From an uncultured Streptomyces sp. (GTDB lineage: Bacteria; Pseudomonadota; Gammaproteobacteria; Burkholderiales; SG8-41), in NCBI GenBank assembly GCA_964510405.1, contig CAZEAX010000001.1:1-48135 (forward strand): a DNA stretch of 48,135 nucleotides, read 5' to 3'. The position numbers were made by a program, and so were the translations under genes. Positions 8,510-38,936 of the stretch are shown here, piece by piece (the first letter of the stretch is position 1; each line of letters begins with the position of its first letter). The notes under the pieces were generated by a model, which ran no database searches, had not been told where the DNA came from, and saw only the letters and a program-made list of their open reading frames with translations.

Positions 8510-9478
8510 ATGATGAAGTCAGTATTGGTGCGCGTCGCCGTATTGTGGTCTGCGATCGTGATTGCCGCGATCGCCCAGGATTATCCAAGCAAGTCGGTGC
8601 GCGTGGTCGTGCCGTGGGCGGCGGGCGGTTCGACCGACTCGATCAGCCGCATACTCGCGGCGAAACTCACCGAATACACGGGCCAGCAGTTCATCATCGA
8701 TAACCGCGCCGGCGCCACGGGCACGATCGGGCACGCGCTCGTGTCGAAGTCGCCGCCGGACGGCTACACGCTGTTGATCGGCAGCAACAGCACGTTTGCA
8801 ATTGCGCCGCATCTCTACAAGACGCTGCAATATGACAACGACACGTCGTTCGCGCCGATCGAGCTGCTCGCGGTGAGTCCGCAGATCCTGTCGGTGCACC
8901 CGTCGATACCGGCAAAAAACGTGAAAGAGCTGATCGCGCTGGCCAAGGCGCAGCCCGGCTCGTTGATATTTTCGTCGGCGGGCCAGGGCAGCACGAGCCA
9001 TCTCGCGACCGAACTCCTGATGAACACCGCAGGCATCAGGATGATCCACGTGCCGTACAAAGGCGGCGGACCGTCGGCACAGGCGCTGCTCGGCGGCGAA
9101 ACGATGTTGTCTTTCGTCGACGTAATCACTGCGTTGCCGTTCGCGAAGGCCGGCCGGCTGCGGCCGCTCGCCGCCAGCACGACCAGGCGCTCGGCGATGA
9201 TGCCCGATCTGCCGACGATCTCCGAGTCGGGATTGAAAGGGTTCGACTCGGCGACTACCTTCGCCGTGTTCGTGCCGGCAGGCACGCCGCGCGAAGTGAT
9301 CGCAAAGCTCAACCGCGAAATCACGCGCGCGCTCGCCGCGCCCGACGTCAAGGAGAAGCTCTTCAATCAGGGCATCGAAACCGTCGGCGGCACGCCCGAG
9401 GAATTCATCGCCTATAACAAAGCGGAGTCCGCCAAGTGGGGCAAGGTGATCCGCGAGCAGGGCATCAAGATCGAATAG
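8510..9478 (+). CDS. TctC/Bug-family substrate-binding protein
   Basis: Signal peptide, then AQDYPSKSVRVVVPWAAGGSTD, DNRAGATGTIG, PDGYTLL and HVPYKGGGPSA. The start could instead be the second ATG at 8513. Confidence 0.9.
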   Translation: MMKSVLVRVAVLWSAIVIAAIAQDYPSKSVRVVVPWAAGGSTDSISRILAAKLTEYTGQQFIIDNRAGATGTIGHALVSKSPPDGYTLLIGSNSTFAIAPHLYKTLQYDNDTSFAPIELLAVSPQILSVHPSIPAKNVKELIALAKAQPGSLIFSSAGQGSTSHLATELLMNTAGIRMIHVPYKGGGPSAQALLGGETMLSFVDVITALPFAKAGRLRPLAASTTRRSAMMPDLPTISESGLKGFDSATTFAVFVPAGTPREVIAKLNREITRALAAPDVKEKLFNQGIETVGGTPEEFIAYNKAESAKWGKVIREQGIKIE

Positions 9479-11170: not shown

Positions 11171-13300
11171 GTGAGCACAGCAAAACCAAAAAGATCCGCG
11201 CGTGAAAGCGTGCGCATCGCCGTCGACATCGGCGGCACTTTCACGGACGGTCTCGCCGTCATCGCGCCGGGCAACCGGATCTGGGTCGGCAAGACGCTGA
11301 CGACACCCGACGATCCGGGAGTGGCGGTGACCACCGTCATGGCGGACTTGCTGAAGCAGATCGCCGCGGCGCGCGGCGCAGGCAAGCGCGCAGTGACGGA
11401 TGTGGTGCACGGCACGACGCTCGTGACCAACACGCTGATCGAGCGCAAGGGCGCGCGCACCGGGCTCGTCGTCACGCAGGGCACGCGCGACGTGCTCACC
11501 ATCGCGCGCGAAATCCGCTACGACCTCTACGATCTGAATCTCGAGATTCCGCAACCGCTGGTGCCGGAAGACAAGCGCGTCGAAGCCGCCGAGCGGCTCG
11601 ACGTGAGCGGTGCGATCGTCAAGCCGCTTACCGCCGTGGAACTCGAAGGAGTGCTGGACCAGCTCCGCGCGCTCGATGTCGACGCGGTCGCCGTGTGCCT
11701 CTTGCATGCGTATGTGAACGACGTGCACGAAAAGCAGATTGCAGCCGCTGTAAAGAAACGATTTCCGAAGCTCGCGATTTCGATTTCGTCCGGCATTGCG
11801 CGCGAGATCCGCGAATACGAGCGCATGTCGACGACGGTCGCGAACGCGTACGTGCAGCCGCTGATGACCGAGTACCTGAACCGGCTCGATCAGCGCGTGC
11901 ACGATCTGGCGCCCGGCGCGCCGTTGAAGATCATGGTGTCGAGCGGCGGCTTCACGTCGGGCAAGGCTGCTGCAGACACGCCTATCCTGCTGCTCGAATC
12001 GGGGCCGGCCGGCGGCGTGCTGTCGGCGCTCAACACCGCGCGCAACACCGGCATCTCGGAAATCCTCGCGTTCGACATGGGCGGCACGACGGCGAAGGCA
12101 TGCGTCGCGGTCGGCGGCGAGCCGCTGATTGCGCACAGTTTCGAATGCGCGCGCGTGTCGCGTTTCAAGCGCGGCTCGGGACTGCCTATATTGATACCGA
12201 GCATCGACCTGATCGAGATCGGCGCCGGCGGCGGCTCGATCGCGCACGTCAACGATCTCGGCCTGCTCAACGTCGGGCCGGAATCCTCCGGCGCGGTGCC
12301 GGGGCCCGCGTGCTACGGGCTCGGCGGCGAGGGCGCAACGGTCACCGACGCCGATCTCGCGCTCGGTTATCTCAATCCGGATAATTTTCTCGGCGGCGAC
12401 ATGAAGCTGCGCACCGATCTCGCGCAGGCCGCGCTGCAAAAACTCGCGACCCAGCTCAAGTTGACGGCGACCGAAGTAGCGTGGGGCATCTGCAATATCG
12501 TCAACGAGAACATGGCCGCCGCGGCGCGCATCCACATCGCGGAGAAAGGCCACGACCCGCGCAGCTTCACGATGGTCGCGACCGGCGGCGCGGGGCCGGT
12601 GCACGTGGTCGAAGTCGCGCGCAAGTTGCAGATCCCGCGCGTGCTGGCGACGATCGCGGCGGGCGCCGGCTCGTGCCTGGGTTTGCTCGCGGCACCCGCG
12701 CGCGTCGATCGCTCGTGGTCGAATCCGACGCTGGTAGCCGCGATCGACTGGAAAAAAGTCGCCGGCGTTTACGCGGATCTCCGCGCCGATGCCGAAAAGG
12801 AACTGGATTCCGCCGGCGCGCGCGACGCGAACCTCAAGTGGTGGATAGGCGCCGAAATGCGCTATGCGGGCCAGGGCCATAACGTTTCCGTCAATCTGCC
12901 GTGGCGCAAGGTGAACGCCGCGATGGCGCCGGCGCTGATCCGCGAATTCGAGCGCTGCTACCGGCAGTTCTACGGGCACCTCGTGCCGGGCGCGGCGCCG
13001 CAGGTGATCACGTGGCGGCTGACCGGCCGCTCGGTGGTGAAGAGCCACCGCTTTGCGTGGGGTGACGCGCGCGTGAGTGCGAAGCCCGTGATGCGCGGCA
13101 AGCGCGCGATCTACCTGCCGCTCAAGCGGAAATTCCAGCCGGTGCCGGTGTACGACCGCTATTCGCTGAAGCCCGGCACCAAAATCGCCGGTCCGCTGAT
13201 ACTCGAGGAGCGCGAATCGACGCTGGTGGTGCCGGTCGCGGCCGAAGTGAAAATACTCGCCGATTACACGGTCGCGGTGACGATCAAGGAGTTCGAATGA
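11171..13300 (+). CDS. hyuA: hydantoinase/oxoprolinase family, A (HyuA-like) subunit
   Basis: GTG start. Contains RIAVDIGGTFTD near the N-terminus and a second ATPase-fold segment LAFDMGGTTAK. Length 709 aa. Confidence 0.9.
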   Translation: MSTAKPKRSARESVRIAVDIGGTFTDGLAVIAPGNRIWVGKTLTTPDDPGVAVTTVMADLLKQIAAARGAGKRAVTDVVHGTTLVTNTLIERKGARTGLVVTQGTRDVLTIAREIRYDLYDLNLEIPQPLVPEDKRVEAAERLDVSGAIVKPLTAVELEGVLDQLRALDVDAVAVCLLHAYVNDVHEKQIAAAVKKRFPKLAISISSGIAREIREYERMSTTVANAYVQPLMTEYLNRLDQRVHDLAPGAPLKIMVSSGGFTSGKAAADTPILLLESGPAGGVLSALNTARNTGISEILAFDMGGTTAKACVAVGGEPLIAHSFECARVSRFKRGSGLPILIPSIDLIEIGAGGGSIAHVNDLGLLNVGPESSGAVPGPACYGLGGEGATVTDADLALGYLNPDNFLGGDMKLRTDLAQAALQKLATQLKLTATEVAWGICNIVNENMAAAARIHIAEKGHDPRSFTMVATGGAGPVHVVEVARKLQIPRVLATIAAGAGSCLGLLAAPARVDRSWSNPTLVAAIDWKKVAGVYADLRADAEKELDSAGARDANLKWWIGAEMRYAGQGHNVSVNLPWRKVNAAMAPALIREFERCYRQFYGHLVPGAAPQVITWRLTGRSVVKSHRFAWGDARVSAKPVMRGKRAIYLPLKRKFQPVPVYDRYSLKPGTKIAGPLILEERESTLVVPVAAEVKILADYTVAVTIKEFE

Positions 13301-14832
13301 AAAAAATAAAGCTCGACCCCGTCACGCTCGAAATCCAGTGGAAGCGTTTGGTCAGCATGGTCGACGAGGCCTCGGCCGCGTTCGTGCGCACGTCGTTCTC
13401 GGTGCTGGTGCGCGAAGCGAACGATTTCGCCGTCGTATTGACCGACGCCGAAGGTCATTCGATCGCGCAGTCGGTGCTGTCGATCCCGTCGTTCATCGGC
13501 ACGCTGCCGGCGACGGTCAAGCATTTCCTCAGGAAGTTTCCGGCGCATACGCTGAAGCCCGGCGACGTGATGATCACCAACGATCCGTGGATGGGCACCG
13601 GCCACATCCACGACGTCAACATCGCGATGCCGATATTTCACAAGGGTAGGCTCGTCGCGTTCGCCGCGGTGGTGAGCCACATGCCCGACATCGGCGGGCG
13701 CATCCGCAACGCGGGCATCCGCGACATTTACGAAGAAGGCCTGCAGATCCCGCAGCTGAAACTGATCAACGCGGGCAAGCCCGACCAGAACCTGCTCGAC
13801 ATGATAGGGCAGAACGTGCGCGTGCCCGAGCAGACGCTGGGCGACATCTGGGCGCAGGTCGCCGCGTGCAAGATGCTCGAAGAACGCTTGCGGCCGCTCT
13901 TGCGCGATACCGATCTCAATGCGCTCGGCGCGGAAATCCGCCGCCGCTCGGAGGCCGCGATGCGCAAAAGCATCCGTGCGGTACCGGACGGCGTGTACCA
14001 CGCGCAAACGCGTCACGACGGGTTCGAGGAACCCATCCTCATCAACTGCACGATCACGGTCAAAGGCGAGAAGCTCGCGATCGATTACACGGGTTCCTCC
14101 GCGCAGGTGCCGCGCGCCGTCAACGTGGTGCCGATTTATACGTTCGCGTACTCGGCATTCGCGGTGAAGGCATTGCTGTGCCCCGACGTGCCGAACAACG
14201 AAGGCAGCTTCACGCCGATCACGACGTCGGCGCCGCTCGGCTCGATCTTCAATCCGCGCTATCCGGCGGCGAGCGGCGGGCGCGGCATGATAGGCCACAT
14301 GATGGTGCCGGCGATCATGATGGCGCTCGCTGACGTGCTGCCCGAGCGCGCGATCGCGGAAGGCTCGTCGAATTCGTCGATCACGGTCACGGGAGAACAT
14401 CAGGGCCGGCCGTACGCGGCAGTCAATTTCATGAACGCGGGACAGGGCGCGACCAGGCACCGCAACGGCTACACGATGCTGTCGTTCCCGTCGAACCTGT
14501 CGAACACGCCGATCGAAGTGTTCGAGCAGATGGCGCCGCTGCGCGTGGTCGAGCGCAGCATCCGGCGCGGCAGCGGCGGCGCCGGCAAGCATCGCGGCGG
14601 CGACGGATTGCGTTTCGAAGTCGAGGTCGTGGCGGACACGCCGATGATGGCGTCGATGATCATGACGCGCTTTCGCACCGCACCCCAGGGCATCTTCGGC
14701 GGCGCGCCGGGCAAAGTCGGCGCGCTGCTCCTGAACGGCAAGACCATCGATCCCGCCGACCACTGGGTGTTGAACAAGGGCGACCGCGTGGTGATGGAAA
14801 CCGCGGGCGGCGGCGGATACGGAAAAGCTTAG
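13297..14832 (+). CDS. hyuB: hydantoinase/oxoprolinase family, B (HyuB-like) subunit
   Basis: ATGA overlap with hyuA. Motifs include DPVTLEIQWKRLVSMVDE, ITNDPWMGTGHIHD and GGGGYG near the C-terminus. Confidence 0.9.
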   Translation: MKKIKLDPVTLEIQWKRLVSMVDEASAAFVRTSFSVLVREANDFAVVLTDAEGHSIAQSVLSIPSFIGTLPATVKHFLRKFPAHTLKPGDVMITNDPWMGTGHIHDVNIAMPIFHKGRLVAFAAVVSHMPDIGGRIRNAGIRDIYEEGLQIPQLKLINAGKPDQNLLDMIGQNVRVPEQTLGDIWAQVAACKMLEERLRPLLRDTDLNALGAEIRRRSEAAMRKSIRAVPDGVYHAQTRHDGFEEPILINCTITVKGEKLAIDYTGSSAQVPRAVNVVPIYTFAYSAFAVKALLCPDVPNNEGSFTPITTSAPLGSIFNPRYPAASGGRGMIGHMMVPAIMMALADVLPERAIAEGSSNSSITVTGEHQGRPYAAVNFMNAGQGATRHRNGYTMLSFPSNLSNTPIEVFEQMAPLRVVERSIRRGSGGAGKHRGGDGLRFEVEVVADTPMMASMIMTRFRTAPQGIFGGAPGKVGALLLNGKTIDPADHWVLNKGDRVVMETAGGGGYGKA

Positions 14833-19599: not shown

Positions 19600-20559
19600 T
19601 TACTCGGCCTGGATATTGGCGGCTTTCACCACTTCGGCCCATTTTTTGAGTTCGGAATCGAGGACCTTTTTGAATTCGCCGGGCGTAGACGGAATGGCTT
19701 CAAGCGAAAGCGCGGCGAGCCGTTCCCGCACCTGCGGTTGGTTGACCGCCTTCACAATCTCGCGGTTGAGCATCGCGATGATCGCCTGCGGCACGCCGGC
19801 CGGCGCCAGCACGCCGTTCCAGTTTTCGCCTTCGACGCCTTTGACGCCGGCTTCGGCCATGGTCGGTACATCGGGTATCGCCGCGGAGCGTTTTTTTCCG
19901 GCAATCGCGAGTCCGCGCAGGCGTCCGGATTGAATATGCGGCACAGCGGCGGGCATGGTGCTGATCGCGGATTGCACCTGGCCGGCGACCGTGTCCGCGA
20001 CGGCGGGGCCGGTGCCCTTGTAAGGCACGGGATTTAGCTTGATGCCGGCGCGCAATTGAAAAAGCTCGCCGACCACGTGCGTCGTCGCGCCGACGCCGCC
20101 GTGGCCGAGCGTGATTTTGCCCGGCTGAGCTTTGGCGAGCGCGATGAATTCCGCGAGGTTCACAGCCGGCACCGACGGATGCATGACGAGAATCGCCGGC
20201 GAAGTCGCGACCATGGATACCGGCACGAAATCCCTGGCGAGATCGTAGCCGACATTCTTGCTGACCGCGGGATTGATCGTGACCGGCAGGTCCGTGAACA
20301 GCAGCGTGTAGCCGTCGGGCTGTGCGTGCGCGGCGAGCTGGGTGCCGAGCATGCTCGCGGCGCCCGGCCGCGTGTCGATGACGATGGTGGTGCCGAGGTA
20401 TTCACCGAGCTTCTGGCCGAGGATGCGCGCGGAGATTTCGGAGCCGCCGCCCGGCGCCCACGGTACTATCATGCGGATCGGGCGATTTGGGTAGTCGCTG
20501 GCGAGTGCTGCACCCGCGGTCAACGCGCAGGCGATCGATATGGTTCGGCAAATTTTCAT
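19600..20559 (-). CDS. TctC/Bug-family substrate-binding protein
   Basis: Signal peptide, then SDYPNRPIRMIVPWAPGGGSE, PDGYTLLF and PVPYKGTGPAV. Its start overlaps the upstream stop (ATGA at 20556..20559). Confidence 0.9.
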   Translation of the reverse strand: MKICRTISIACALTAGAALASDYPNRPIRMIVPWAPGGGSEISARILGQKLGEYLGTTIVIDTRPGAASMLGTQLAAHAQPDGYTLLFTDLPVTINPAVSKNVGYDLARDFVPVSMVATSPAILVMHPSVPAVNLAEFIALAKAQPGKITLGHGGVGATTHVVGELFQLRAGIKLNPVPYKGTGPAVADTVAGQVQSAISTMPAAVPHIQSGRLRGLAIAGKKRSAAIPDVPTMAEAGVKGVEGENWNGVLAPAGVPQAIIAMLNREIVKAVNQPQVRERLAALSLEAIPSTPGEFKKVLDSELKKWAEVVKAANIQAE

Positions 20560-22781: not shown

Positions 22782-23738
22782 TTAATTCAGTTTGATGTCG
22801 GCGGCTTTGACGACTTTGGCCCAGCGTTCGTAGTCTTCGCGGATGAACTGGCCGAGCTCGTCGGGCGACATCGGTGCGGGAATGAGGCCCTGCGCCATCA
22901 ATTTTTCGCGCACGTCGGGCGAGTTCAGCGCTTTGACTGCGTCGGCGTTGAGGCGTGCGACGAGTTCTTTCGGCGTGCCGGCGGGCGCCATCAGCGGATA
23001 CCAGTTGAGCACGTCGAAGCCGGGCAGCCCGGATTCGTCCACGGTCGGCACGCTCGCCAGCGGCGGATAACGCTTCCTGCCGGACACGCCGAGGACTTTG
23101 AGCCGGCCCGCCTGCAATTGCGGCAGCACCGAGGGATCGGAGAACGTGAGGTCCGCGTGGCCGCCCATGATGTCGGCGATCGCGGGCGCCGTGCCTTTGT
23201 ACGGAATGTGAATCATGTGGATGCCGGCCATCACGTTGAAGAGTTCGCCGGCGAGATGCTGGCCGGTGCCGGCGCCGCCGGACGCCATGTTGAGTTTGCC
23301 GGGATTGGCTTTCGCGAGCTTGATCAGCTCGGCGGCGTTTTTCGCGGGCACCGAAGGATGCGCGACGATGATGTACGGCATGGTCACGAGCATCGTGATC
23401 GGCGCGAGATCCTTGAGCGGGTTGTAGCCGAGCTTCGGAAACAGCAGCGGCGCGACCGCGACCGAGCCCGGTCCCGCGACGAGCAGCGTGTAGCCGTCGG
23501 GCGCGGACTTTGCGACGTGTTCGGCGCCGATGGTGCCGGCCGCGCCCGCGCGGTTGTCGATCACGACCTGCTGGCCCAGATATTCGGTGAGTTTCTGGCC
23601 GACCGTGCGCGCGGTGAGATCGACGCCGCCGCCGGCGGGAAACGGCACCACGATGCGCACGGGTTTGTTCGGATAACCCTGCGCGCCGGCCGCCAGGGCG
23701 TACGCGATGCTCAGTGCCGCGATGAGGAGTTTCGTCAT
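22782..23738 (-). CDS. TctC/Bug-family substrate-binding protein
   Basis: Internal ATG 23738. Signal peptide MTKLLIAALSIAYALAAGAQGYPNKPVRIVVPFPAGGGVD, then DNRAGAAGTIGAEHVAKSAPDGYTLLV and HIPYKGTAPAI. Confidence 0.9.
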   Translation of the reverse strand: MTKLLIAALSIAYALAAGAQGYPNKPVRIVVPFPAGGGVDLTARTVGQKLTEYLGQQVVIDNRAGAAGTIGAEHVAKSAPDGYTLLVAGPGSVAVAPLLFPKLGYNPLKDLAPITMLVTMPYIIVAHPSVPAKNAAELIKLAKANPGKLNMASGGAGTGQHLAGELFNVMAGIHMIHIPYKGTAPAIADIMGGHADLTFSDPSVLPQLQAGRLKVLGVSGRKRYPPLASVPTVDESGLPGFDVLNWYPLMAPAGTPKELVARLNADAVKALNSPDVREKLMAQGLIPAPMSPDELGQFIREDYERWAKVVKAADIKLN

Positions 23739-23760
23739 GGTGAATGAATAATACCTCACG

Positions 23761-24954
23761 CTACGTGTGCTCCTTCTGCAGAAAGAAATCGCCCGACAGC
23801 TCGGTGCCGAGGCCCATGCGGCGCGCATTTCCGAGTATCCGGGCGCCGGCAGCGGCGAACTGCATGCCGCAGCCGTTGTTGTTCAGGTGGTGCGTGATTT
23901 CGTCCGCGCTATTGCGTCCTGTCGCGCGCCCGTTCAGGAGGTCTCCCAGCTCGACATAGGAGTCCCAGTCGAATTCCTGCGCCTTCTGGTTGATCAGTTG
24001 GCCGAAGGTCGCGCCGCGTTTTTTTTCACCCATCACGAAATTCTGCACGAAATCGCTGGTGTCGCCGAACGGCTTCAGGCTGACCACGATCTGGCGGCTC
24101 GATTTGAACGTGCGCACATCGTCTTCCAGCAGCGTGCCGATGCCCAGGTGCATGCCGGGCAGAAGCCACTCGGCGTCGTATACGGGCTCGTACGAACTCG
24201 TCGCGGCAAGCACGATGTCGGCGTTCTCGAACGCGCGTTGTGCGGAATCGACTGCGATGACCTCGACGCCGATGCGCTCGCTCATCGTGCGCGCAAACCG
24301 TTCGCGGTTTGCCTGCGTAGGACTGTAGATGCGCACGCGCCTCAACTTCATGATCGCGGCCGTGCATTCGAGCGCGGCTTCGGCCTGTGCACCGCTGCCG
24401 AGCACGCCGACCGTTTCGGACTCCGGGCGCGCAAGCAGTTTCACGCCGAGTGCCGTGGTACCGCCGACGCGCATTTTCTGGATGTGCGAATCGGGCAGCA
24501 TGCCGAGCACTTCGCCGGTCTCGAGCGACAGCAGCACGATCATGCTCATGAACTGCCAGCCGGGCGCCAGCGGCAGCTTCACGCGGCGCAATACGCCGGC
24601 GATTTCGGGTTGCGTATCGAAGTGCGTCGAGATGCGCACCGCCATCATGCCGCACGCGGGCAATCCGCCGGTCACGGTTTTCAGGCGATAGACGACGTCG
24701 CCCGCTTTCTTGGCGGCCTCTATCGTCGGCGCGGCGTAGACGGGATCGGCGTCCAGCGGCAGCGCGTCGATGCGCGCCGCCGTCGCGCGCTTGATGTCCG
24801 GCGTGTAGCCGTCGAACGGCACGCACGTGTCGACGCGCAGCGAATTGACGGCGCGGCCGGCGCCGAGTTCGCGAAACGCCTGCTCCATCGTTTCGACGTA
24901 TTCGTCCGCGCGCATGGCGGCGGCGACTTCGCGGTTGTCGAGCAGAAGAGGCAT
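23761..24954 (-). CDS. ornithine cyclodeaminase/mu-crystallin family protein (long form)
   Basis: Internal ATG 24954. The Rossmann segment is VGVLGSGAQAEAALE, with an OCD-like N-terminus (MPLLLDNREVAAAM). It is about 397 aa, longer than typical family members. Confidence 0.8.
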   Translation of the reverse strand: MPLLLDNREVAAAMRADEYVETMEQAFRELGAGRAVNSLRVDTCVPFDGYTPDIKRATAARIDALPLDADPVYAAPTIEAAKKAGDVVYRLKTVTGGLPACGMMAVRISTHFDTQPEIAGVLRRVKLPLAPGWQFMSMIVLLSLETGEVLGMLPDSHIQKMRVGGTTALGVKLLARPESETVGVLGSGAQAEAALECTAAIMKLRRVRIYSPTQANRERFARTMSERIGVEVIAVDSAQRAFENADIVLAATSSYEPVYDAEWLLPGMHLGIGTLLEDDVRTFKSSRQIVVSLKPFGDTSDFVQNFVMGEKKRGATFGQLINQKAQEFDWDSYVELGDLLNGRATGRNSADEITHHLNNNGCGMQFAAAGARILGNARRMGLGTELSGDFFLQKEHT

Positions 24955-27301: not shown

Positions 27302-27366
27302 AGCGCGACAGTTTGCTTGATTTAGAATAGGCTGTCTTGCGCAGTTTTTCGTGTGAGTATCGAGAA

Positions 27367-28185
27367 ATGGACAAACCTTCCGCGCACTGCCCGGGCACCG
27401 CCCGGATGGCCGCGCCCGAAAGCCCGGTGCAGGGCGACCTTGCGCGCGCGGTCGTCACGCGGCGCACCACGTACGCCAACGGCCATTGCATCAAGCCGCA
27501 CTGGCACGCGCGCGCCCAGTTCATATTTGCGGTCGCCGGCACGATGCGCGTGCGCACGGCGCGGCGCGTGTGGATAGTCCCGCCGACGCGTGCACTGTGG
27601 GTGCCCGCGCGCACCGTGCACGAAGTGCAGATGTACGGCGTCGTGCAAATGCGCAGTCTCTATGTCGACGACGTCTGCGGCGCCGGCATGCCGTCCTCGT
27701 GCGCCGTGCTGAACGTGACGCCTCTGCTCAAGGAACTCATCGTGCGCGCCGTCGCGCTGCCGGCGGGCTACGACGAGCACGGCGACGACGGGCTGCTGAT
27801 GCAATTGCTGATGGCCGAAGTGCGGCGCCTGCCGCACTGCGCACTCGATCTGCCGCTGCCGGAGAGCGCCGATCTCACGCGATTGTGCGAGCGGTTGCTC
27901 GACGACCTGTCCGCGCGGCGGCCGTGCGATCTCGACGCGCTCGATTTGAAGACCAGCACGCGCACGCTCTACCGGCGCTTCCTGCGGGAAACCGGCATCA
28001 CATTTGCGCGCTGGAAGCACCAGGCGCGCCTGCTTGAATCGATCCGCCGTCTCGCCGAGGGCGTGCCGGTCACGACGGTTGCGCTCGATCTCGGCTATGC
28101 CAGCCCGAGCGCGTTTTCGTCGATGTTCCGGCGCGCGGTCGGGACGCCGCCGCGCATATTTACTACGGCGGGCAGCAGCGGTTAG
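27367..28185 (+). CDS. AraC-family transcriptional regulator (cupin sensor plus HTH)
   Basis: The N-terminal cupin-like region is HWHARAQFIFAVAGTMRV. The C-terminal AraC HTH is TLYRRFLRETGITFARWKHQARL...LDLGYASPSAFSSMFRRAVGTPP. The gene is divergent from the MFS gene. An alternative TTG start lies at 27337. Confidence 0.87.
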   Translation: MDKPSAHCPGTARMAAPESPVQGDLARAVVTRRTTYANGHCIKPHWHARAQFIFAVAGTMRVRTARRVWIVPPTRALWVPARTVHEVQMYGVVQMRSLYVDDVCGAGMPSSCAVLNVTPLLKELIVRAVALPAGYDEHGDDGLLMQLLMAEVRRLPHCALDLPLPESADLTRLCERLLDDLSARRPCDLDALDLKTSTRTLYRRFLRETGITFARWKHQARLLESIRRLAEGVPVTTVALDLGYASPSAFSSMFRRAVGTPPRIFTTAGSSG

Positions 28186-28282
28186 TCGATCGCCCGCCGC
28201 GCACGCTGCAGATATGTGCTTTTTTGCTTCTGCCTGGAATAAACCCGCGGTGGGGCCCGTTTGCCCGGAATGGTTCAAACGC

Positions 28283-28311
28283 TTGTGAGCAAGCGGGCAG
28301 TCTGCTATGTT
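28283..28311 (+). promoter_or_regulatory. candidate sigma70-type promoter of the selenoprotein operon, overlapping a palindrome
   Basis: TTGTGA (28283..28288), a 17-nt spacer, then TATGTT (28306..28311), about 30 nt upstream of ATG 28341. The palindrome CGCTTG-tgag-CAAGCG (28280..28295) overlaps the -35 element. This is pattern match only. Confidence 0.25.
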
Positions 28312-28340
28312 GCCCGCAATCAACGATTCCCGGAGCAGGC

Positions 28341-28886
28341 ATGACTAAATTTGGATTTCGCACGCTGGCAGTCGTGGCGCTCGCAGCGCTGGCATTTTCC
28401 ACCGCGGCCGCCGAGCTTCCGCCCTTGCCCGCGGGACTTACCGCGGTGACCAAGCCCGTTCACCTGCCCGCATTCACGCTCGCGACGCCCGCCGGCGGCA
28501 AAGTGCACGCGGATGAATTCAAGGGCAAGGTGCTGATCGCCCGCTTCTGGGCCACCTGGTGAGACATCTGCGTAGGTGAAATGCCCTCCGTGCAGAGGGC
28601 ACATGATGAATACAAGAAGAGCGGCGTGCCGGTGATCGCGATTTCGATCGACGGCGACGGCGAAAAATCGGTCAAGCCTTTCCTGGCCGAGCACAAGTAC
28701 ACTTTGCCAACGCCGCTCGATCCCGACATGGCGGTGGCGCGCGCCGTCGGCGTGCGGGTAACGCCGTGGACCGTGATCGTCGACCGCAGCGGCGCGGTGG
28801 TGGCCGGTGGTTACGGCAAGATCGACATGCAGAGCGCGGAATTCCGCAATTACGTGAAGGCGCTTGCCGCAAGGCCGCCGGGATAA
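28341..28886 (+). CDS. exported TlpA/ResA-like thioredoxin-fold thiol:disulfide oxidoreductase with in-frame TGA (predicted selenocysteine) at 28560..28562, active site W-U-D-I-C
   Basis: ORFs 28224..28562 and 28581..28886 are in the same frame and separated only by one TGA. Read-through gives FKGKVLIARFWATW[TGA]DICVGEMPSVQ...VIAISIDG...TPWTVIVDRSG, matching the TlpA/ResA pattern FWATWCxxCxxEMP. GGAG lies 5 nt before ATG 28341, followed by signal peptide MTKFGFRTLAVVALAALAFSTAAA. Confidence 0.8.
28565..28608 (+). promoter_or_regulatory. candidate bacterial SECIS stem-loop downstream of TGA 28560
   Basis: The upper stem pairs TGCCCTC (28582..28588) with GAGGGCA (28595..28601), with loop CGTGCA containing G and U. 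The lower stem pairs CATC (28565..28568) with GATG (28605..28608). The apical loop lies about 27-32 nt after the UGA. Confidence 0.5.
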
Positions 28887-28933
28887 CGACACCGTCGATT
28901 TTTTTTCGCAGCACCACAACAAGGGAGGCTCGC

Positions 28934-29500
28934 ATGAAGTCGAAACGATGGAGAAATCTGTGGCTGGGAATGTTGTTCGCCGGATCGGCCCTCGCGGGCG
29001 GTGCCGCGCATGCAATAGATGTCGGCGCGAAAGCGCCGGACTTCGCGCTGATGTCCTCGACCGGCAAGGAAATCAAGCTCGCCGATTTCGCCGGCAAGAA
29101 GGCGGCGGTGCTCTTTTTCTACATAGGCGCGTTCACCAACACTTGAACGCAGGAAGCGCTGGCCTTCCAACTTGATCTTCCCAAGTTCGAGGCCGCGAAT
29201 GCCCAGGTCCTGGGCATCAGTGTCGACTTCAACGACGCTAACAAGGCATGGGGCGAGAAACTCGGCCTCAAGTATCCGCTGCTGTCCGATCTGCGCCGCG
29301 AGATGTCACGCGCTTACGGCGTGCTGAACGACGACGCGACCGCGGCAGGCGACACCAAGCGTATCGCGACGTATCTGCGCTCCAAACGCGCGTGGTTCAT
29401 CGTCGACAAGAACGGCGTCGTGGTCTACGCGCGGGTCACGGATCCGCGCGGGCTCGTGCCCAACGACGAGATGCTGGAAGTGCTCGAGAAATTGAAATAG
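28934..29500 (+). CDS. exported BCP/peroxiredoxin-like protein with in-frame TGA (predicted selenocysteine) at 29144..29146 in the peroxidatic position
   Basis: ORFs 28766..29146 and 29303..29500 are in the same frame (difference 537 nt), with no other stop between them. Read-through gives KAAVLFFYIGAFTNT[TGA]TQEALAFQ...VLGISVDFNDANKAWGEKLGLKYPLLSD...AWFIVDKNGVV, the AhpC/TSA-BCP pattern FFYPxxFTxxCTxE. AAGGGAGG lies 5 nt before ATG 28934, followed by signal peptide MKSKRWRNLWLGMLFAGSALAGGAAHA. Confidence 0.8.
29152..29187 (+). promoter_or_regulatory. candidate SECIS region downstream of TGA 29144 (two alternative small hairpins)
   Basis: Hairpin A pairs GGAAG (29152..29156) with CTTCC (29164..29168), with loop CGCTGGC. 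Hairpin B pairs AACTTG (29169..29174) with CAAGTT (29182..29187), with loop ATCTTCC. Which of them, if either, is functional cannot be decided by eye. Confidence 0.35.
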
Positions 29501-29506
29501 CCTGAA

Positions 29507-29533
29507 GCGCCCGCGCGCCGCAGGCGCGGGCGC
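29507..29533 (+). terminator. GC-rich hairpin after the peroxiredoxin-like gene (possible terminator, no U-tract)
   Basis: GCGCCCGCGC-gccgcag-GCGCGGGCGC forms a 10-bp perfect stem 7 nt after stop 29500. It lacks a T-run. Confidence 0.35.
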
Positions 29534-29612
29534 ATCGCGCGTTCGCAATCTTGCCGGCATCGAGCCGCGGTAGCAGGCTCGATGCCGTTTCAGTTTGGAC
29601 GACGCTTACGCC

Positions 29613-30584
29613 ATGAGTTATCGCAATGCTTCCCGCTGGCTGCTCGCGGCGCTGCTCGTATCGGTTCAATCGGCGCATCCGGCGGAAAATTTCCCCGCGA
29701 AGACCGTGCGGTTGATTGTGCCTTTTGCGGCGGGCGGCGGCGGCGACGGCGCGGCGCGTCCGCTTGCCCAGGCGTTGTCCGCGCGGCTCGCGCAGCAGGT
29801 GGTCATCGATAACCGCGGCGGCGCAGGCGGAATCATCGGCATCGAGACCGCGGCGAACGCGGCGCCCGACGGCTATACGCTGTTGCTCTCCACCGCGGGT
29901 TTTGCCGCGCTGCCCGCGCTGCATCGTACGCTGCCTTTCGACCCTGTGCGCGATTTCACCGGTGTCATCGTCGCGCAATCCGGCATTTACATACTCGTCG
30001 TAAATCCGGCGGGCAATATCACGTCGGTGAACGGCTTGATTTCGTACGCGAAGGCGAATCCGCGCAAGCTTGATTTTGCATCGGCGGGCATCGGTTCGAC
30101 GATCCATCTCGCAGGCGAGCTCTTCAAAAGCATGGCGCAGATCGACATGGTCCACGTGCCGTACAAGGGCGCCGGACCCGCGATTACCGACGTAATCGGC
30201 GGACAGGTGCAGACGATGTTCGCATCCGCTCTGAACGCACTGCCGCTGGTCAAATCGGGAAAGTTGCGCGCGCTGGCGGTGACTTCGGCGCAGCGTTCCG
30301 CACTCGTTCCGGAGTTGCCGACTGTGGCGGAAAGCGGCATGCCGGGCTTTGAAGCGACGGGTTGGTACGGGCTTGCCGCACCGGCGCGCACGCCGAAGCC
30401 GATCGTGCGCAAACTCAATGCGGATGCGAACAGCGCGCTGCGTTCGCCTGAGCTTGTTGATTTGCTAAAAGCGCAGGGGCTTGAACCCGTCGGCGGAACG
30501 CCGGAAGCCGCGACTGAACTCATCCGCAAGGACGTGGAGCGCTGGACGCGATTGATCCGCGATGCCGGCATCAAACAGCAATAG
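29613..30584 (+). CDS. TctC/Bug-family substrate-binding protein
   Basis: ATG 29613 (alternative TTG at 29595). Signal peptide, then AENFPAKTVRLIVPFAAGGGGD, DNRGGAGGIIG, PDGYTLLL and HVPYKGAGPAI. Confidence 0.9.
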   Translation: MSYRNASRWLLAALLVSVQSAHPAENFPAKTVRLIVPFAAGGGGDGAARPLAQALSARLAQQVVIDNRGGAGGIIGIETAANAAPDGYTLLLSTAGFAALPALHRTLPFDPVRDFTGVIVAQSGIYILVVNPAGNITSVNGLISYAKANPRKLDFASAGIGSTIHLAGELFKSMAQIDMVHVPYKGAGPAITDVIGGQVQTMFASALNALPLVKSGKLRALAVTSAQRSALVPELPTVAESGMPGFEATGWYGLAAPARTPKPIVRKLNADANSALRSPELVDLLKAQGLEPVGGTPEAATELIRKDVERWTRLIRDAGIKQQ

Positions 30585-32682: not shown

Positions 32683-33797
32683 CTAATTGAGCTGTATTCC
32701 CGTCGCCTTCACCAGCGTGTTGAGCCTTTCGTAATCCGCTTTGATGTTCGCCGCAAGCTGCTCCGGCGTGCCCGGTGTCGCGATCAAGCCCTGAGCCAGC
32801 AGCTTTGATTTCGCTTCGGGCTGCGCGAGAGCTCGCGCGATTTCCGCATTGAGACGCGCAATGACTTCGCGCGGCGTGCCCGCGGGTGCGAAGAGCGCGT
32901 ACCACGTGATCGAGACGAATCCCGGCAGCCCCGATTCGGCGATCGTCGGCACGTTCGGCAAAGGTTCGTAGCGCGTCGTACCCGAAACACCCAGGGCTTT
33001 CAACCTTCCGGAAATAATTTGCGGCAACACCGCGGCGTCGAGAAATCCCTGATTGGCGTGGCCGCCGATCAGGTCGGTGATCGCCGGCGCGGTGCCTTTG
33101 TACGGCACATGCGTCATGCGCGTGCCGGCGAGCAGGTTGAATTCTTCTTCCGCGATATGCTGGCCGCCGCCGGCGCCGCCCGATACTACATTGAGCCGGC
33201 CCGGGTGCGCTTTCGCGAGCGCGATCAGCTCACGCGCATTACGCGCCGGCACCGCCGGATGCGCAGAGAGAATATAAGGCGCCGTCACGAGGTTGCCGAC
33301 CGCAGCGATGTCGCGCGTTGGCACGTAGGGCAGATTGGGATTCGTCAGCGCCGCGGCGACGAGCGGGCCGCGTCCGCTCACGAGCAGCGTGTAACCGTCG
33401 GGCGCCGACTTCGCGACGTGATCGGTGCCGATACGCCGTTGCAGGGCGGAGCAGGGGACCCCTTCAGGGGATGCGACCCCGGAAACGTGCGCCGCGGACG
33501 CGTTTAATTCCACGGCGTCGTCTTCCGACTCGCGGACGTTCACATCCCGCAAGCGGGAGCCCTGTTCACTGCTCGCGTCCGGCCGCCCGCACCGGGGCGG
33601 TTATCGACGATCGCCGACACGTTCAAAGACGGCGCAAGCTGTTGTGCGATCGCGTGGCCGGTAATGTCGACACCGCCGCCGGCGGGATAGGGAACGACGA
33701 TGCGGACGGGTTTGGACGGATAAGCTTGCGCGTATAACGGCGACCCGTTCAGCACCAACGCAGCGCACACCAGCGGGCGGGCGTGACGCATCATCAT
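32683..33797 (-). pseudogene. TctC/Bug-family substrate-binding protein gene disrupted by a ~149-nt insertion
   Basis: The N-terminal piece (33797..33582) reads MMMRHARPLVCAALVLNGSPLYAQAYPSKPVRIVVPYPAGGGVD...VDNRPGAGG. The C-terminal piece (33432..32683) reads IGTDHVAKSAPDGYTLLV...HVPYKGTAPAI... The two pieces are in different frames, and a stop lies inside the intervening sequence. Confidence 0.8.
33433..33581. repeat. structured ~149-nt insertion interrupting the TctC gene (REP/MITE-like, identity unknown)
   Basis: The boundaries are inferred from where TctC homology stops and resumes. Nested hairpin: GGGG (33454..33457) pairs with CCCC (33477..33480), enclosing CCCC-ttca-GGGG. A second hairpin is TCCCGC-aa-GCGGGA (33545..33558). 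The inverted 8-mers are CGGACGCG (33495..33502) and CGCGTCCG (33574..33581). Confidence 0.45.
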
Positions 33798-35020: not shown

Positions 35021-36709
35021 TTATTTTTGCTCTGTCCCGTTCGTTGCGCGGTATCCGTAAACCGCTTGTGCTTCGTCCGCCGACACCAGTCCGTACTCGA
35101 CATCTCGCGCAACTTTTTCGCGCGTGCGTTTTTTCGGATCGCCGATGCCCCCGCCGCCGGGCGTCTCCACGACCACGCGATCGCCGGCCGGTATCACCTG
35201 GCGGCCGAAACCGCGCAGGGTCGCGCCGGATTTCAATGACAACCGTCCGGCGCCGCCGCTTTTGCCGCCGGCGCTGCCGCGCGCCGCGTGCACGATGCGG
35301 TCGAAAGTCGCGGAGATGATCATCGGCGCGTCGTCGCCGTTGGCGATTTCCATGATCTGCCCGAGGCCGCCGCGGTGCTCGCCGGCGCCGCCGGAATCGG
35401 GCCGGTACTCTTTCTTCCAGTACACGACGGGCGACAGCGTCTCCATAATCTCCACCGCGACGTTGCGGATGCCGCTCGGAAACGACGTGACGGACAGCCC
35501 GTCCTTGCCGGGGCGCGCGCCGGTGCCGCCGGTGTTGAAGCCCACGACGTTGAAGCGCGTCTTGCCTTTGAGTTGTTCGGGATCGACGCCCTTGAACGTC
35601 TGGCCGCCGGCGAGCCGCACGTTCCACAACGACGACGTGCCTTCCGCCGGCACCTGGTCGGGCCGCGCCTGGTGCAGGCAGCCGAACACGACGTCGGGCA
35701 GCATCTGGCCGATGGTCGAGCGCGCCGCGACCGCGAGCGGGAAGGGCGCGTTGACGATCGAGCCTTCGGGCGCGGTTACGCGCACGACGGACAACGAGCC
35801 CGCGTTGTTCGGAATATGGCCGCCGATGATGCAGCGCACGCCGAACGACGTGTACGCGTCGGTGTACGACTTCGGCACGTTGATGCCGTTGGTGACGCAC
35901 GGGCTGGTGCCGGTGAAATCGATGTCGATGCCGGATTTCGCAATCGTGAGCCTGCCTTTGAGCGTGATCGGCGCGTCGTAGCCGTCGATCGTCATCGAGT
36001 AAGACCAGCTTCCCCGCGGCCACTCGCGCGCCGCGGCCAGCATCGCCGCGCGCGAGCGCTGGATGATGTGCGCGCCGAGTTTTTCGATGCCCTGCAATTT
36101 ATACTCGTCCATCATCGCAAGCAGGCGGCGGCCGCCGATTTCGTTGCACGCGACGAGCGCGTACAAATCACCTTCGACCTGCACCGGTTCGCGCACGTTC
36201 GCGCGCACGACGCGCAGCATCGTGTCGCTCACGACGCCGCGGTCGACGAGTTTCAGCGGCGGCAGGAACAGGCCTTCGTGATATACCTGCGTGCCGTCGG
36301 CGGAGAGCCCGAGCCCGCCGATGTCGACCACGTGCACGGTAGACGCGAACAGCGCGACCATGCGCCGGCCTTTGAAAACCGGCGTCACCATCGTCATGTC
36401 GTTGAGATGACCCGTGCCTTTCCACGGATCGTTGGTCAGGAACACGTCGCCCGGATACATCGTGCCCGCCGGATATTCGTTGAGGAAATGCCTGACGGAT
36501 TCCGCCATCGAGTTCACGTGTCCCGGCGTGCCGGTCACCGCCTGCGCGACCATGCGGCCGTCGGGCAGGAAGACACCGGCGGAAAGATCGCCGGCTTCGC
36601 GCGTCGCCGCGCCGAACGCAGTGCGCACCAGCGTCTGCGCCTGCTCTTCGACGACCGAGATCAGACGGTTCCACATCACCTGCATGTGAAGGTCGGCGAG
36701 TTTGCTCAC
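35021..36709 (-). CDS. hyuB: hydantoinase/oxoprolinase family, B (HyuB-like) subunit
   Basis: A GTG at 36709 overlaps the hyuA stop (GTGA); an alternative ATG lies at 36685. Motifs include MQVMWNRLISVVEEQ and FLTNDPWKGTGHLND, with GGGGIGDP near the C-terminus. Confidence 0.88.
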   Translation of the reverse strand: MSKLADLHMQVMWNRLISVVEEQAQTLVRTAFGAATREAGDLSAGVFLPDGRMVAQAVTGTPGHVNSMAESVRHFLNEYPAGTMYPGDVFLTNDPWKGTGHLNDMTMVTPVFKGRRMVALFASTVHVVDIGGLGLSADGTQVYHEGLFLPPLKLVDRGVVSDTMLRVVRANVREPVQVEGDLYALVACNEIGGRRLLAMMDEYKLQGIEKLGAHIIQRSRAAMLAAAREWPRGSWSYSMTIDGYDAPITLKGRLTIAKSGIDIDFTGTSPCVTNGINVPKSYTDAYTSFGVRCIIGGHIPNNAGSLSVVRVTAPEGSIVNAPFPLAVAARSTIGQMLPDVVFGCLHQARPDQVPAEGTSSLWNVRLAGGQTFKGVDPEQLKGKTRFNVVGFNTGGTGARPGKDGLSVTSFPSGIRNVAVEIMETLSPVVYWKKEYRPDSGGAGEHRGGLGQIMEIANGDDAPMIISATFDRIVHAARGSAGGKSGGAGRLSLKSGATLRGFGRQVIPAGDRVVVETPGGGGIGDPKKRTREKVARDVEYGLVSADEAQAVYGYRATNGTEQK

Positions 36710-38802
36710 GATCGTTTCCCTTTGCGCTTGTCGAGCACGATGTGTCCGGCGCTGTTGACCGCCGCGTCGAAATTCGCGGTGACGATCACGGTGGTCTGGT
36801 CTTCGACGATCAGCGCGGGACCGGTGGCGCGCGCACCGCCGGCGAGCGCCGCGCGTTCGTATACGGGAACCGTGCGCCATTGCGCGAGCGTGGGCTCGAA
36901 GATGCGCCGCTTCCCTGCCGGACGCGCGCTTTTGCGCGGCAGCGCGCGCGCTTTCGCTGCGCGCTTAACCCTGGTCGACACGGTAACCGACCAGCTCATG
37001 ATCTCGACGTCCATGTTGGGCACGGTGCGCCCGTAGAGCACGCGATAGGCTTCATCGAAGCGGCGTTTCAGGTTCGCGGTGTCTTTGGCGGCGAGCTTGC
37101 CGGATGGCAGCATCACCGCGATTTCGTGGCCCTGGCCCGCGTAGCGCATGTAGGCAACGCGCGTCGCCGCCAGCGGTGCGTTGCCCGCGGCAGTGCGCAC
37201 GACCGCGGTCGCCTGCTTCGTCATTTCGTCGAGCAGCCGGTTCGCGTGCGCGACGTCGAGTTTCGCGATGAACTGGTACCAGCTGCGCACCGCCTGAAAT
37301 GCGACCGGTGCGGTGAGGAATCCGAGCGCCGAGCCCACGCTCGCGCCGACCGGGATGACTACGCGCGTAACACCCAGCTTGTCCGCGAGCCGCGCGGCAT
37401 GCAAGGGCGCGGCGCCGCCGAATGCGATCACGGTGTAGTTCTCGACCGTCTTGCCGAGTTCCATTGCGTGCACGCGCGCGGCATTCGCCATGTTCTCGGT
37501 GACGATTTCGGTGATGGCGAGCGCGCCTAACGCGGTATCGACTTTGAGCGGCTTCGCAATGTCGCGGGTGACCGCCGCCTCCGCCAGCCCGGTTTCGAGC
37601 GCGACGCGGCCGCCGGCAAAGCGTTGCGGGTCGAGCAAACCCATCGCGCAATCGGCATCGGTCACGGTTGCGTGGTCGCCGCCGCGCGCGTAACACGCGG
37701 GACCCGGCTCGGAGCCCGCGCTGTCGGGCCCGACCTGCACGCGTTCGAGATCGTCGACGCGCGCGATCGAGCCGCCGCCCGCGCCGATTTCGACCATCTC
37801 GATCACCGGGATGCGGATCGGCAGCCCGCTGCCTTTGAGAAAACGGTACATGCGCCCGAATTCGAAGCTGCGTGAAATTTCCGGTTCGTATTCGTCGATG
37901 AAGCAGATCTTCGCGGTGGTGCCGCCCATGTCGAACGACAACGCGCAATGCGCGCCGCAACTCTCGGCGACGGTGCGCGCGAGGATCGCGCCGCCGGCGG
38001 GGCCCGATTCGACGAGGCGCACGGGCTCCGCCGCGCCCATCGCGAGCGTGCACAGCGCGCCGCCTGACGTCATCAGGTAAACCGGGCAGCGGATGCCCAT
38101 CGTGTTGAGACGCGTCTGCAGCCGGTTCAGATAGCCCGCCATCACCGGTTGCACGTAGGCGTTCGCGCACGTGGTCGAGATGCGCTCGTATTCGCGGATT
38201 TCCGGGCACACGTCCGACGACAGCGTGACCCACAGTTCGGGCAGCGCGCGCTTCAGAATGTCTTTCGCGCGCTGCTCGTGAAGCGGGTTCGTGAAACTCT
38301 GCAGAAACGCGATGGCGACGCTTTCGATGCCCTGGCGCTTGAGCGTCGGCGCCAGCGCTGCGACCGCGGCTTCGTCGAGCGGCAGCAGCACGCGGCCTTT
38401 GGCATCGATGCGTTCGGGCACCGGCAGGCGCAGATGACGCGGCACCAGCGGCGCCGGCTTGTCGATAAAAATATCGTACTGCGCGAAGCGGTGCTCCCAG
38501 CCGATTTCGACGAGATCGCGGAAGCCTTCGGTGGTCACGAGCGCGGTCCTCGCACCCTTGCGCTCGATCAACGCGTTGGTCGCGAGCGTGGTGCCGAGGA
38601 TGAAGAGATCGAGCGCGTCGGGGGCCAGCGCGGCCTCGGCGAGAATTTCGCGCACGGCGGCGATCACCGCATCTTCCGGCGCGCGCGGCGTGGTGAGCAC
38701 TTTGCCGGTCCACTGCCGGCCGCGCGCCTCGAGCACGATGTCGGTGAAAGTGCCGCCGATATCGACGGCGAGACGCGCACCCGCTGGTTTTGCTGCTGAC
38801 AT
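36706..38802 (-). CDS. hyuA: hydantoinase/oxoprolinase family, A (HyuA-like) subunit
   Basis: Contains RLAVDIGGTFTD near the N-terminus and LSFDMGGTTAK. The start is taken at ATG 38802 (MSAAKPAG...), and an alternative ATG at 38829 is possible. The SD is weak for both. Confidence 0.88.
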   Translation of the reverse strand: MSAAKPAGARLAVDIGGTFTDIVLEARGRQWTGKVLTTPRAPEDAVIAAVREILAEAALAPDALDLFILGTTLATNALIERKGARTALVTTEGFRDLVEIGWEHRFAQYDIFIDKPAPLVPRHLRLPVPERIDAKGRVLLPLDEAAVAALAPTLKRQGIESVAIAFLQSFTNPLHEQRAKDILKRALPELWVTLSSDVCPEIREYERISTTCANAYVQPVMAGYLNRLQTRLNTMGIRCPVYLMTSGGALCTLAMGAAEPVRLVESGPAGGAILARTVAESCGAHCALSFDMGGTTAKICFIDEYEPEISRSFEFGRMYRFLKGSGLPIRIPVIEMVEIGAGGGSIARVDDLERVQVGPDSAGSEPGPACYARGGDHATVTDADCAMGLLDPQRFAGGRVALETGLAEAAVTRDIAKPLKVDTALGALAITEIVTENMANAARVHAMELGKTVENYTVIAFGGAAPLHAARLADKLGVTRVVIPVGASVGSALGFLTAPVAFQAVRSWYQFIAKLDVAHANRLLDEMTKQATAVVRTAAGNAPLAATRVAYMRYAGQGHEIAVMLPSGKLAAKDTANLKRRFDEAYRVLYGRTVPNMDVEIMSWSVTVSTRVKRAAKARALPRKSARPAGKRRIFEPTLAQWRTVPVYERAALAGGARATGPALIVEDQTTVIVTANFDAAVNSAGHIVLDKRKGKRS

Positions 38803-38936
38803 TCGGAGGGATCCCGGGGAATGTGCCATGCGCCATGGCATGGCTTCATTAATGGAACGATTATAATCAATCGGCGATTCAGCGCACATGCGCGAGGCGC
38901 GTGCAAGCTGCAGGAGAACATGTGTCACTCGTGAAA

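Follow-up and report, generated by a model that had tools for sequence, protein, structure and literature searches.

A TlpA-like redoxin gene and its neighbouring peroxiredoxin gene, each with an in-frame UGA, are predicted to encode a pair of exported selenoproteins

Two adjacent genes are described here from a 48,135-nucleotide stretch of bacterial DNA (contig CAZEAX010000001.1 of assembly GCA_964510405.1, positions 1 to 48,135 of the forward strand; hereafter the window), the first encoding a TlpA/ResA-like thioredoxin-fold protein and the second a Bcp/PrxQ-type peroxiredoxin (Prx), and each holding a single in-frame TGA at the position of the catalytic residue. From comparison with related loci, we consider it probable (roughly 0.85) that both TGAs are genuine selenocysteine (Sec) codons, and the two genes most likely form an operon encoding two exported selenoproteins. 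An earlier note on this DNA had proposed that the first of these genes encodes a selenoprotein. That proposal has held up, with TGA in 52/52 orthologous loci, Sec/Cys pairing and RNA-level conservation of a downstream hairpin all speaking for it, and every test named there for refuting it that could be run came out in its favour. The TlpA-like gene has the following features.

28332..28335, plus strand: Shine-Dalgarno-like GGAG, 5 nt 5' of the ATG at 28341, read from the sequence.
28341..28886, plus strand: predicted TlpA/ResA-like thioredoxin-fold selenoprotein gene; 181 codons including Sec, TAA stop, active site W-U-D-I-C.
28341..28412, plus strand: predicted Sec-type signal peptide of the TlpA-like protein, MTKFGFRTLAVVALAALAFSTAAA; the cleavage site is approximate and was read by eye.
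28560..28562, plus strand: UGA as predicted selenocysteine codon, nucleophilic first position of UxxC; TGA in 52/52 related loci, aligned with the first Cys of WCxxC.
28569..28571, plus strand: TGC for the resolving Cys of UxxC, the sole Cys of the domain; exactly one Cys in 50/50 orthologues.
28582..28601, plus strand: putative selenocysteine insertion sequence (SECIS) hairpin; 7-bp stem UGCCCUC/GAGGGCA, apical loop CGUGCA at 28589-28594, starting 19 nt past the UGA.

Translation of 28341..28886 on the plus strand gives a single open frame with one internal stop, the TGA at 28560-28562 (...GKVLIARFWATW*DICVGEMPSVQRAH...). The open reading frame (ORF) fragments 28224..28562 and 28581..28886 thus belong, as had been claimed, to one frame, and between them lie the TGA and the six codons D-I-C-V-G-E only. 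With Cys in place of the stop, the protein matches PF00578 AhpC-TSA (5.6e-22, 78.4 bits, cut-off 26) and PF08534 Redoxin (1.2e-21, 77.5 bits, cut-off 26.6), and both scores exceed the curated thresholds for the domains of a TlpA/ResA-like redoxin (PF08534/PF00578; cd02966). Its W-U-D-I-C-V-G-E-M-P aligns with WCPPCREEIP of a Geobacter thioredoxin-family protein and with WCKPCEKEMP of ResA; U replaces the first Cys, and the Glu and Pro are kept. The placement of the stop on the nucleophilic Cys of WCxxC is borne out by structure-sequence alignment, in which solved ResA/TlpA-like structures have Cys opposite the TGA, and by the closest Cys-form, P0133, which has TGT there. The downstream motifs VIAISIDG and TPWTVIVDRSG are present as reported.

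Evidence also comes from conservation. Scanning GTDB with one genome for each species yielded 48 related loci, to which 4 metagenomic ones were added (52 in total, 53 sequences with the window). They hold 46 distinct downstream sequences, come mostly from metagenome-assembled genomes (MAGs) of uncultured Betaproteobacteria/Burkholderiales and from Ca. Entotheonella/Tectomicrobia, and encode TlpA-like proteins of 42-88% identity in two phyla. At the Sec position all 52 carry TGA, and never TGC, TGT, TAA or TAG, which argues that Sec is selected over Cys. The orthologues have no extra stops or frameshifts, and their true stops are a mixture of TAA, TAG and TGA. Among differing codons, the synonymous share is 0.32 over the 30 codons 5' of the TGA and 0.33 over the 40 codons 3' of it, so that both halves evolve as coding sequence and the gene, as the earlier note maintained, is not decaying. 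Five independent assemblies of this organism contain the cassette with both TGAs, differing at 0-5 of 1163 nt, and a TGA shared by these assemblies and by 52/52 loci is not a sequencing error or a matter of chance. Reassignment of the genetic code was considered and rejected, since TGA ends 15/32 ordinary genes of the window and the true stops of the orthologues are mixed.

That relatives keep TGA while a Cys-form carries TGC or TGT was a check proposed in advance, and P0133 supplies the second half of it. This protein (L060 391-440, a forest-soil contig that ends too early to reveal a following Prx gene) is 47% identical, has WCGFC as its active site and TGT at the Sec position. In its gene a remnant of the SECIS sequence survives, ATGCCGGCCGTGCAGAGGGCC, with the rare AGG codon for Arg still in place, in which the stem can no longer form; the TGT together with the relic and its destroyed stem suggests that P0133 is a product of Sec-to-Cys conversion.

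The stem-loop that had been noticed past the TGA proved to be the 7-bp hairpin at 28582-28601. Across loci its sequence, UGCCCUC-CGUGCA-GAGGGCA, is nucleotide-invariant except for changes that give G-U pairs. The hairpin overlaps the residues MPSVQR, and in 50 distinct sequences S, V, Q and R are always encoded by TCC, GTG, CAG and AGG, with CCC for P in 96%. Other invariant residues of the protein use 3-5 codons each, the top codon accounting for a share of ∼0.5-0.7, and the other invariant Arg columns use 4-5 codons, mostly CGC, where the hairpin Arg is always AGG. Synonymous sites are thus frozen over P-S-V-Q-R, and we conclude that the hairpin is conserved at the level of RNA. Cys-type homologues vary at these residues (EMPAVQRAY, EMPSIQALH, EMPALERMH, EIPSMMRLN). 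A lower 3-bp extension of the helix (columns 17-19/43-45) is not claimed, as it is paired in just 79% of cells.

A further line of evidence is the neighbouring gene, which the earlier note had missed (28934..29500). Its features are as follows.

28923..28928, plus strand: Shine-Dalgarno-like GGGAGG before the Prx gene, read from the sequence.
28934..29500, plus strand: predicted Bcp/PrxQ-type peroxiredoxin selenoprotein gene; 188 codons including Sec, TAG stop, active site [I]GAFTNT-U, no Cys.
29144..29146, plus strand: UGA as predicted selenocysteine codon, peroxidatic position (TxxU); TGA in all 50 readable Prx neighbours, aligned with the Bcp peroxidatic Cys.
29160..29195, plus strand: hairpin 1 past the Prx UGA, probable SECIS; two stacked helices, an internal loop and an apical loop AUCUUCC at 29175-29181.
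29199..29217, plus strand: hairpin 2 past the Prx UGA; 8 bp, loop G-U-N; it may belong to an extended SECIS.

This gene, too, holds one internal TGA, at 29144-29146 (...AAVLFFYIGAFTNT*TQEALAFQLDLPKFEA...). The protein matches PF00578 AhpC-TSA (1.2e-34, 119 bits), and its TGA lies opposite the peroxidatic Cys of archaeal Bcp peroxiredoxin structures (FTQVCTKE in 2ywn). No Cys occurs in the Prx domain in 46/46 orthologues. The Pro of the peroxiredoxin PxxxTxxC motif is otherwise invariant ("absolutely conserved"). In every Prx orthologue it is replaced by Ile or Val (29123-29146 of the window, FFYIGAFTNT-U; L001-L052); unlike this Pro, the Thr, the U (for C) and the distal Arg (..SKRAWFIVD..) of the BCP/PrxQ active site are kept. 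Read by eye, the N-terminus of the Prx is a signal peptide ending in AHA, and export-type N-termini (positive charge, a hydrophobic stretch, AxA-like sites) occur in both proteins at all loci, again as judged by eye and with no predictor.

A TGA-bearing Prx gene adjoins the TlpA-like gene in the same orientation in 50/53 sequences, the window included. Of the three sequences without a readable Prx TGA, two are cut short by the end of the contig (in L019 before the TGA, with the start of the Prx gene visible, and in L031 too early), and the third, L044, is the additional paralogue of an Entotheonella genome and the sole locus that has enough flank and no adjoining Prx. When the window was scanned for further in-frame-TGA candidates, these two genes only were recovered. 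A TGA on the catalytic chalcogen position of two adjacent, different enzymes is the signature of Sec and not of generic read-through.

Like the TlpA-like gene, the Prx gene has stem-loops shortly 3' of the UGA that lie within the coding sequence and are conserved as RNA. Hairpin 1 is paired in 98% of cells and has 3 pairs with compensatory changes, and its observed score is reached by 0/500 shuffles. In hairpin 2, whose loop lies ∼61 nt from the UGA, the compensatory pairs are 57-73 (UA:24, CG:11), 58-72 and 63-67. Taken jointly, the two hairpins are paired in 98.5% of cells, with five compensatory pairs in 21 cells and a covariation that 0/500 shuffles reach, and RNAalifold and explicit pair counts agree on both. 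The top of the hairpin 2 stem, CAGGUNCUG, is reminiscent of the apex of the Escherichia coli fdhF SECIS. The stem of the TlpA-like gene begins 19 nt, and hairpin 1 of the Prx gene 13-14 nt, from the UGA, with the apical loops ∼29-31 nt from its first base. Loop distances of ∼29-31 nt fall within the span that bacterial SECIS prediction allows for. The P450 selenoproteins of Entotheonella are reported to have a 12-nt spacing, to which the spacings in this cassette are close (PMC11703216).

Several observations weigh against reading both TGAs as Sec codons in a peroxide-reducing pair. The folding energy of the TlpA hairpin taken alone is unremarkable (z = -0.67), and compensatory double changes are lacking in it because its sequence never varies; the weight of this hairpin rests on conservation and not on thermodynamics. 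The two putative SECIS elements have dissimilar apical loops, and the Prx gene has a second conserved hairpin, so that either of its hairpins is a candidate binder of SelB. Finally, neither the 48-kb window nor the 10 kb on either side of 50 loci yielded selA, selB, selD or tRNA-Sec, and no DsbD/ScsB/CcdA membrane reductase was found among 30 window genes searched with Pfam or among the identified recurring neighbours. The machinery search used tblastn with E. coli SelA, SelB and SelD (from NC_000913.3) against the window and all related loci, and according to ARAGORN neither the window nor any of 50 related loci contains a tRNA of any kind; machinery genes are therefore not linked to the cassette. 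A full set of Sec genes is reported by a preprint on the chromosomes of Entotheonella, one of the two lineages that bear the cassette (PMC11703216).

How the two proteins might act can be outlined from their sequences. In each mRNA, UGA would be recoded to Sec by the standard bacterial route, the hairpin in the coding sequence recruiting SelB-GTP-Sec-tRNA(Sec) to the ribosome, and Sec-type signal peptides on both products would lead to action in the cell envelope. The Prx selenolate would there reduce H2O2 or an organic hydroperoxide and become a selenenic acid; the Sec of the TlpA-like partner would attack the oxidised Prx to give an intermolecular Se-Se intermediate, which its Cys would resolve to an intramolecular selenenylsulfide; and a membrane reductase of the DsbD/ScsB/CcdA type, encoded elsewhere, would re-reduce the TlpA-like partner. 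We lean towards the view that the pair acts in this way, as a redox relay that removes peroxide in the cell envelope, with a confidence clearly below that for the Sec codons. The support that we infer for the relay consists of genetic linkage and Cys content: a Prx without a resolving Cys requires an external nucleophile, for which the UxxC protein encoded alongside suggests itself.

In the stronger form of this proposal, the relay would be all-selenium: a Cys-free, one-Sec Prx without the canonical Pro would be recycled by its Sec-x-x-Cys partner via an intermolecular diselenide, both proteins being exported unfolded through SecYEG after UGA recoding, and the two genes would form a mobile module spread across Burkholderiales and Tectomicrobia. 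We put this forward tentatively, and rather doubt than favour it. If true, it would be the first envelope pair of a Sec-Prx and a Sec-reductase, and a natural example of diselenide-based Prx recycling.

Alternatively, one could envision that the TlpA-like protein is a real selenoprotein with a classical TlpA/ResA/CcmG job, serving apocytochrome c, Cu-centre assembly factors or a periplasmic Msr, and exchanges no electrons with the Prx. The best sequence matches, which are ResA and TlpA proteins with such roles, are what this would lead one to expect, but we regard it as unlikely, because virtually all loci, in both phyla, have the TGA-bearing Prx gene adjoining and co-directional, while no other neighbour stands out: in a clustering of neighbouring ORFs across loci, the two cassette genes and TctC emerged, TctC being the sole recurring neighbour family identified (smaller clusters are unannotated), and this hugely expanded family has seven copies in the window alone. 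Annotation of the window genes revealed no cytochrome c maturation or Cu-assembly genes near the cassette, and a Cys-less Prx cannot resolve its own oxidised Sec and needs an external partner.

Much less probable still is that the UGA is read through without Sec, by near-cognate Trp or Cys insertion or in hosts that lack Sec machinery, with the hairpins aiding read-through or pausing instead of binding SelB. The missing machinery in the window and flanks and the dissimilar hairpin loops would fit such a mechanism. However, the UGA falls precisely on the catalytic Cys in two unlike enzymes, and Trp or Gly at the UGA would kill both active sites; TGA is never replaced by TGC or TGT among 46 distinct sequences, so that Sec is favoured over Cys, and the full Sec set reported in Entotheonella genomes (PMC11703216) also argues against it. 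A last pair of readings, a pseudogene or a TGC/TGT codon turned into TGA by faulty sequencing or assembly, could appeal to the single substitution between these codons and to the handling of the gene as fragments by automatic annotation, but is effectively refuted by the five assemblies, the TGA in 52/52 loci, the intact ORFs with equal substitution patterns on both sides of the TGA, the conserved RNA element downstream and the second gene with the same feature.

Returning to the predicted selenoprotein pair, its components have relatives among known systems. Sec-containing peroxiredoxins (TxxU), Prx-like thiol:disulfide oxidoreductases (PF00578, UxxC), thiol-disulfide isomerase-like proteins (cd02966, UxxC) and a UGC-containing TlpA family are known or high-confidence predicted prokaryotic selenoproteins (PMC13188914 Table 1; PMC1088965; PMC2398784), and the Global Ocean Sampling (GOS) study found single reads with neighbouring Prx/Prx-like selenoprotein genes. 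With UxxC redoxins and TxxU peroxiredoxins already catalogued, the kind of finding is known: a Sec-containing TlpA-like redoxin as such is not new in kind and would not surprise a selenoproteome specialist. The operon-level reading, in which the two form a Sec-based pair for peroxide reduction in the envelope, is plausible and novel to a mild degree. In open-access full text we did not find a description of the strict gene pairing, of export signals on both proteins, of a Prx that is entirely Cys-free, of Ile or Val for the Pro of PxxxTxxC, or of a TlpA SECIS whose nucleotides are almost absolutely conserved between two phyla.

With the UxxC selenoproteins surveyed in the Sargasso Sea and GOS data, the TlpA-like protein shares the redoxin fold, the matches to PF00578/PF08534, Sec as the first residue of UxxC, a SECIS within the coding sequence and widespread Cys homologues. 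In contrast to these, and as set against the published lists by description, it forms a distinct, tightly conserved subfamily with the motif RFWA[TS]W-U-x-x-C-x-x-E-MPSVQR, whose hosts are MAGs of soil and freshwater Burkholderiales and Entotheonella, and whose members always bear a signal peptide and are almost always followed by a Sec-Prx gene. Among solved structures, the best matches are Bacillus subtilis ResA and Bradyrhizobium TlpA (PDB 1st9, 1jfu, 4txo), which align column for column over WCxxC, including the downstream Glu and Pro; these Cys enzymes of cytochrome and Cu-centre maturation are ∼30-35% identical to the TlpA-like protein, which has Sec for their Cys. The protein scored 63.6 against TlpA NF047696 (cut-off 230) and 85 against ResA NF002854 (cut-off 170), below the equivalog/subfamily level in each case, and is, judged by sequence, a ResA/TlpA relative and not an equivalog. 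The ResA-like WAxxUGC selenoproteins (NF041054) likewise share a TlpA/ResA-like fold and Sec in the active-site region, but the present protein, with U-x-x-C instead of an adjacent U-G-C, is not a member (53.4 against WAxxUGC_long, cut-off 300).

The Prx resembles PrxU of the Eubacterium acidaminophilum type (NF040737), Prx-SUH (NF045827) and marine Sec-Prx (PMC1088965) in its peroxidatic Sec after T-x-x, its AhpC/TSA fold and the kept Arg. It differs from known Sec-Prx in its predicted export, in having Ile or Val for the Pro of PxxxTxxC and in being Cys-free, and it scored 54.6 against PrxU (cut-off 270) and 38.9 against Prx-SUH (cut-off 298). For both proteins, the scores against all NCBIfam models, including those for selenoproteins, stay below cut-off.

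The closest functional precedent is the envelope pathway ScsB -> TlpA -> PprX of Caulobacter crescentus, in which it has been established experimentally that an exported TlpA reduces an exported BCP/PrxQ-type Prx (PMC3322552); PprX homologues that rely on DsbD have been noted in Betaproteobacteria (PMC3322552). Both systems combine an exported TlpA-like thioredoxin-fold protein with an exported BCP/PrxQ-type Prx. In the pair described here, which is known from sequence, both nucleophiles would be Sec, the genes are adjacent, and the resolving Cys of PprX has no counterpart in the Prx.

If the family is as we describe it, its absence from annotation has consequences. Gene callers split the two genes into four fragments. 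The prediction that automatic annotation would miss the TlpA-like gene agrees with what is deposited: a database of 5.8 billion protein clusters gave >100 clusters of 50-92% identity, labelled "peroxiredoxin", all of them C-terminal fragments of ∼101 aa that begin with MPSVQR and cover the C-terminal 56% of the query, and no full-length entry for the family was present among the matches examined from this search and from one of cluster representatives with the 107-aa C-terminal part of the TlpA-like protein. Gene callers have thus truncated the family everywhere, and because no NCBIfam selenoprotein model captures either gene, counts of selenoproteins in soil and freshwater Burkholderiales and in Entotheonella are too low. 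Dozens of genomes would be put right by a model of both genes (UxxC redoxin, TxxU Prx and the SECIS elements). The pair would also allow selenium chemistry to be tested in the oxidising cell envelope, and opens the question of Sec versus Cys in a Prx that lacks both a resolving residue and the canonical Pro.

Some minor observations concern the cassette itself. The two genes are separated by 47 nt, within which a short hairpin, CGAC-ACC-GUCG, precedes eight consecutive T (28889-28909); this element falls below detection in a terminator scan and might attenuate transcription between the genes; a promoter/terminator scan of 28100-29700 yielded nothing useful. Rfam at the gathering threshold returned no family for the whole window, and a permissive search of 28300-29550 returned a chance match alone, a weak radC RNA hit within the TlpA-like coding sequence (28394-28505; 17.4 bits against a gathering score of 40, E = 0.96). 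The TlpA-like selenoprotein gene is present twice in some genomes (L005 and L007 in MAG JAQGMI01; L020 and L044 in OX639990.1). Four MAG records bearing a betaproteobacterial-type cassette (L010, L013, L015 and L036) have Streptomyces sp., Chitinophaga pinensis or Bordetella parapertussis in their titles, probably through mislabelled bins or as placeholder names.

The remainder of the window is ordinary Burkholderiales-type chromosome, with MFS transporters, PrpD, arginase and aminotransferases among 30 genes annotated with Pfam. An AraC-type regulator lies immediately upstream of the cassette (27337..28185), and the AraC-MFS-TctC-PrpD synteny is kept in the same species only. The seven TctC/Bug receptors, which include those at 2001-2969, 8510-9478, 19600-20559, 22782-23828, 29595-30584 and 32683-33552, appear unrelated to the selenoprotein genes, as do two hydantoinase/oxoprolinase A+B pairs (11171-14832 and 35021-38928) of a kind typical of Burkholderiales.

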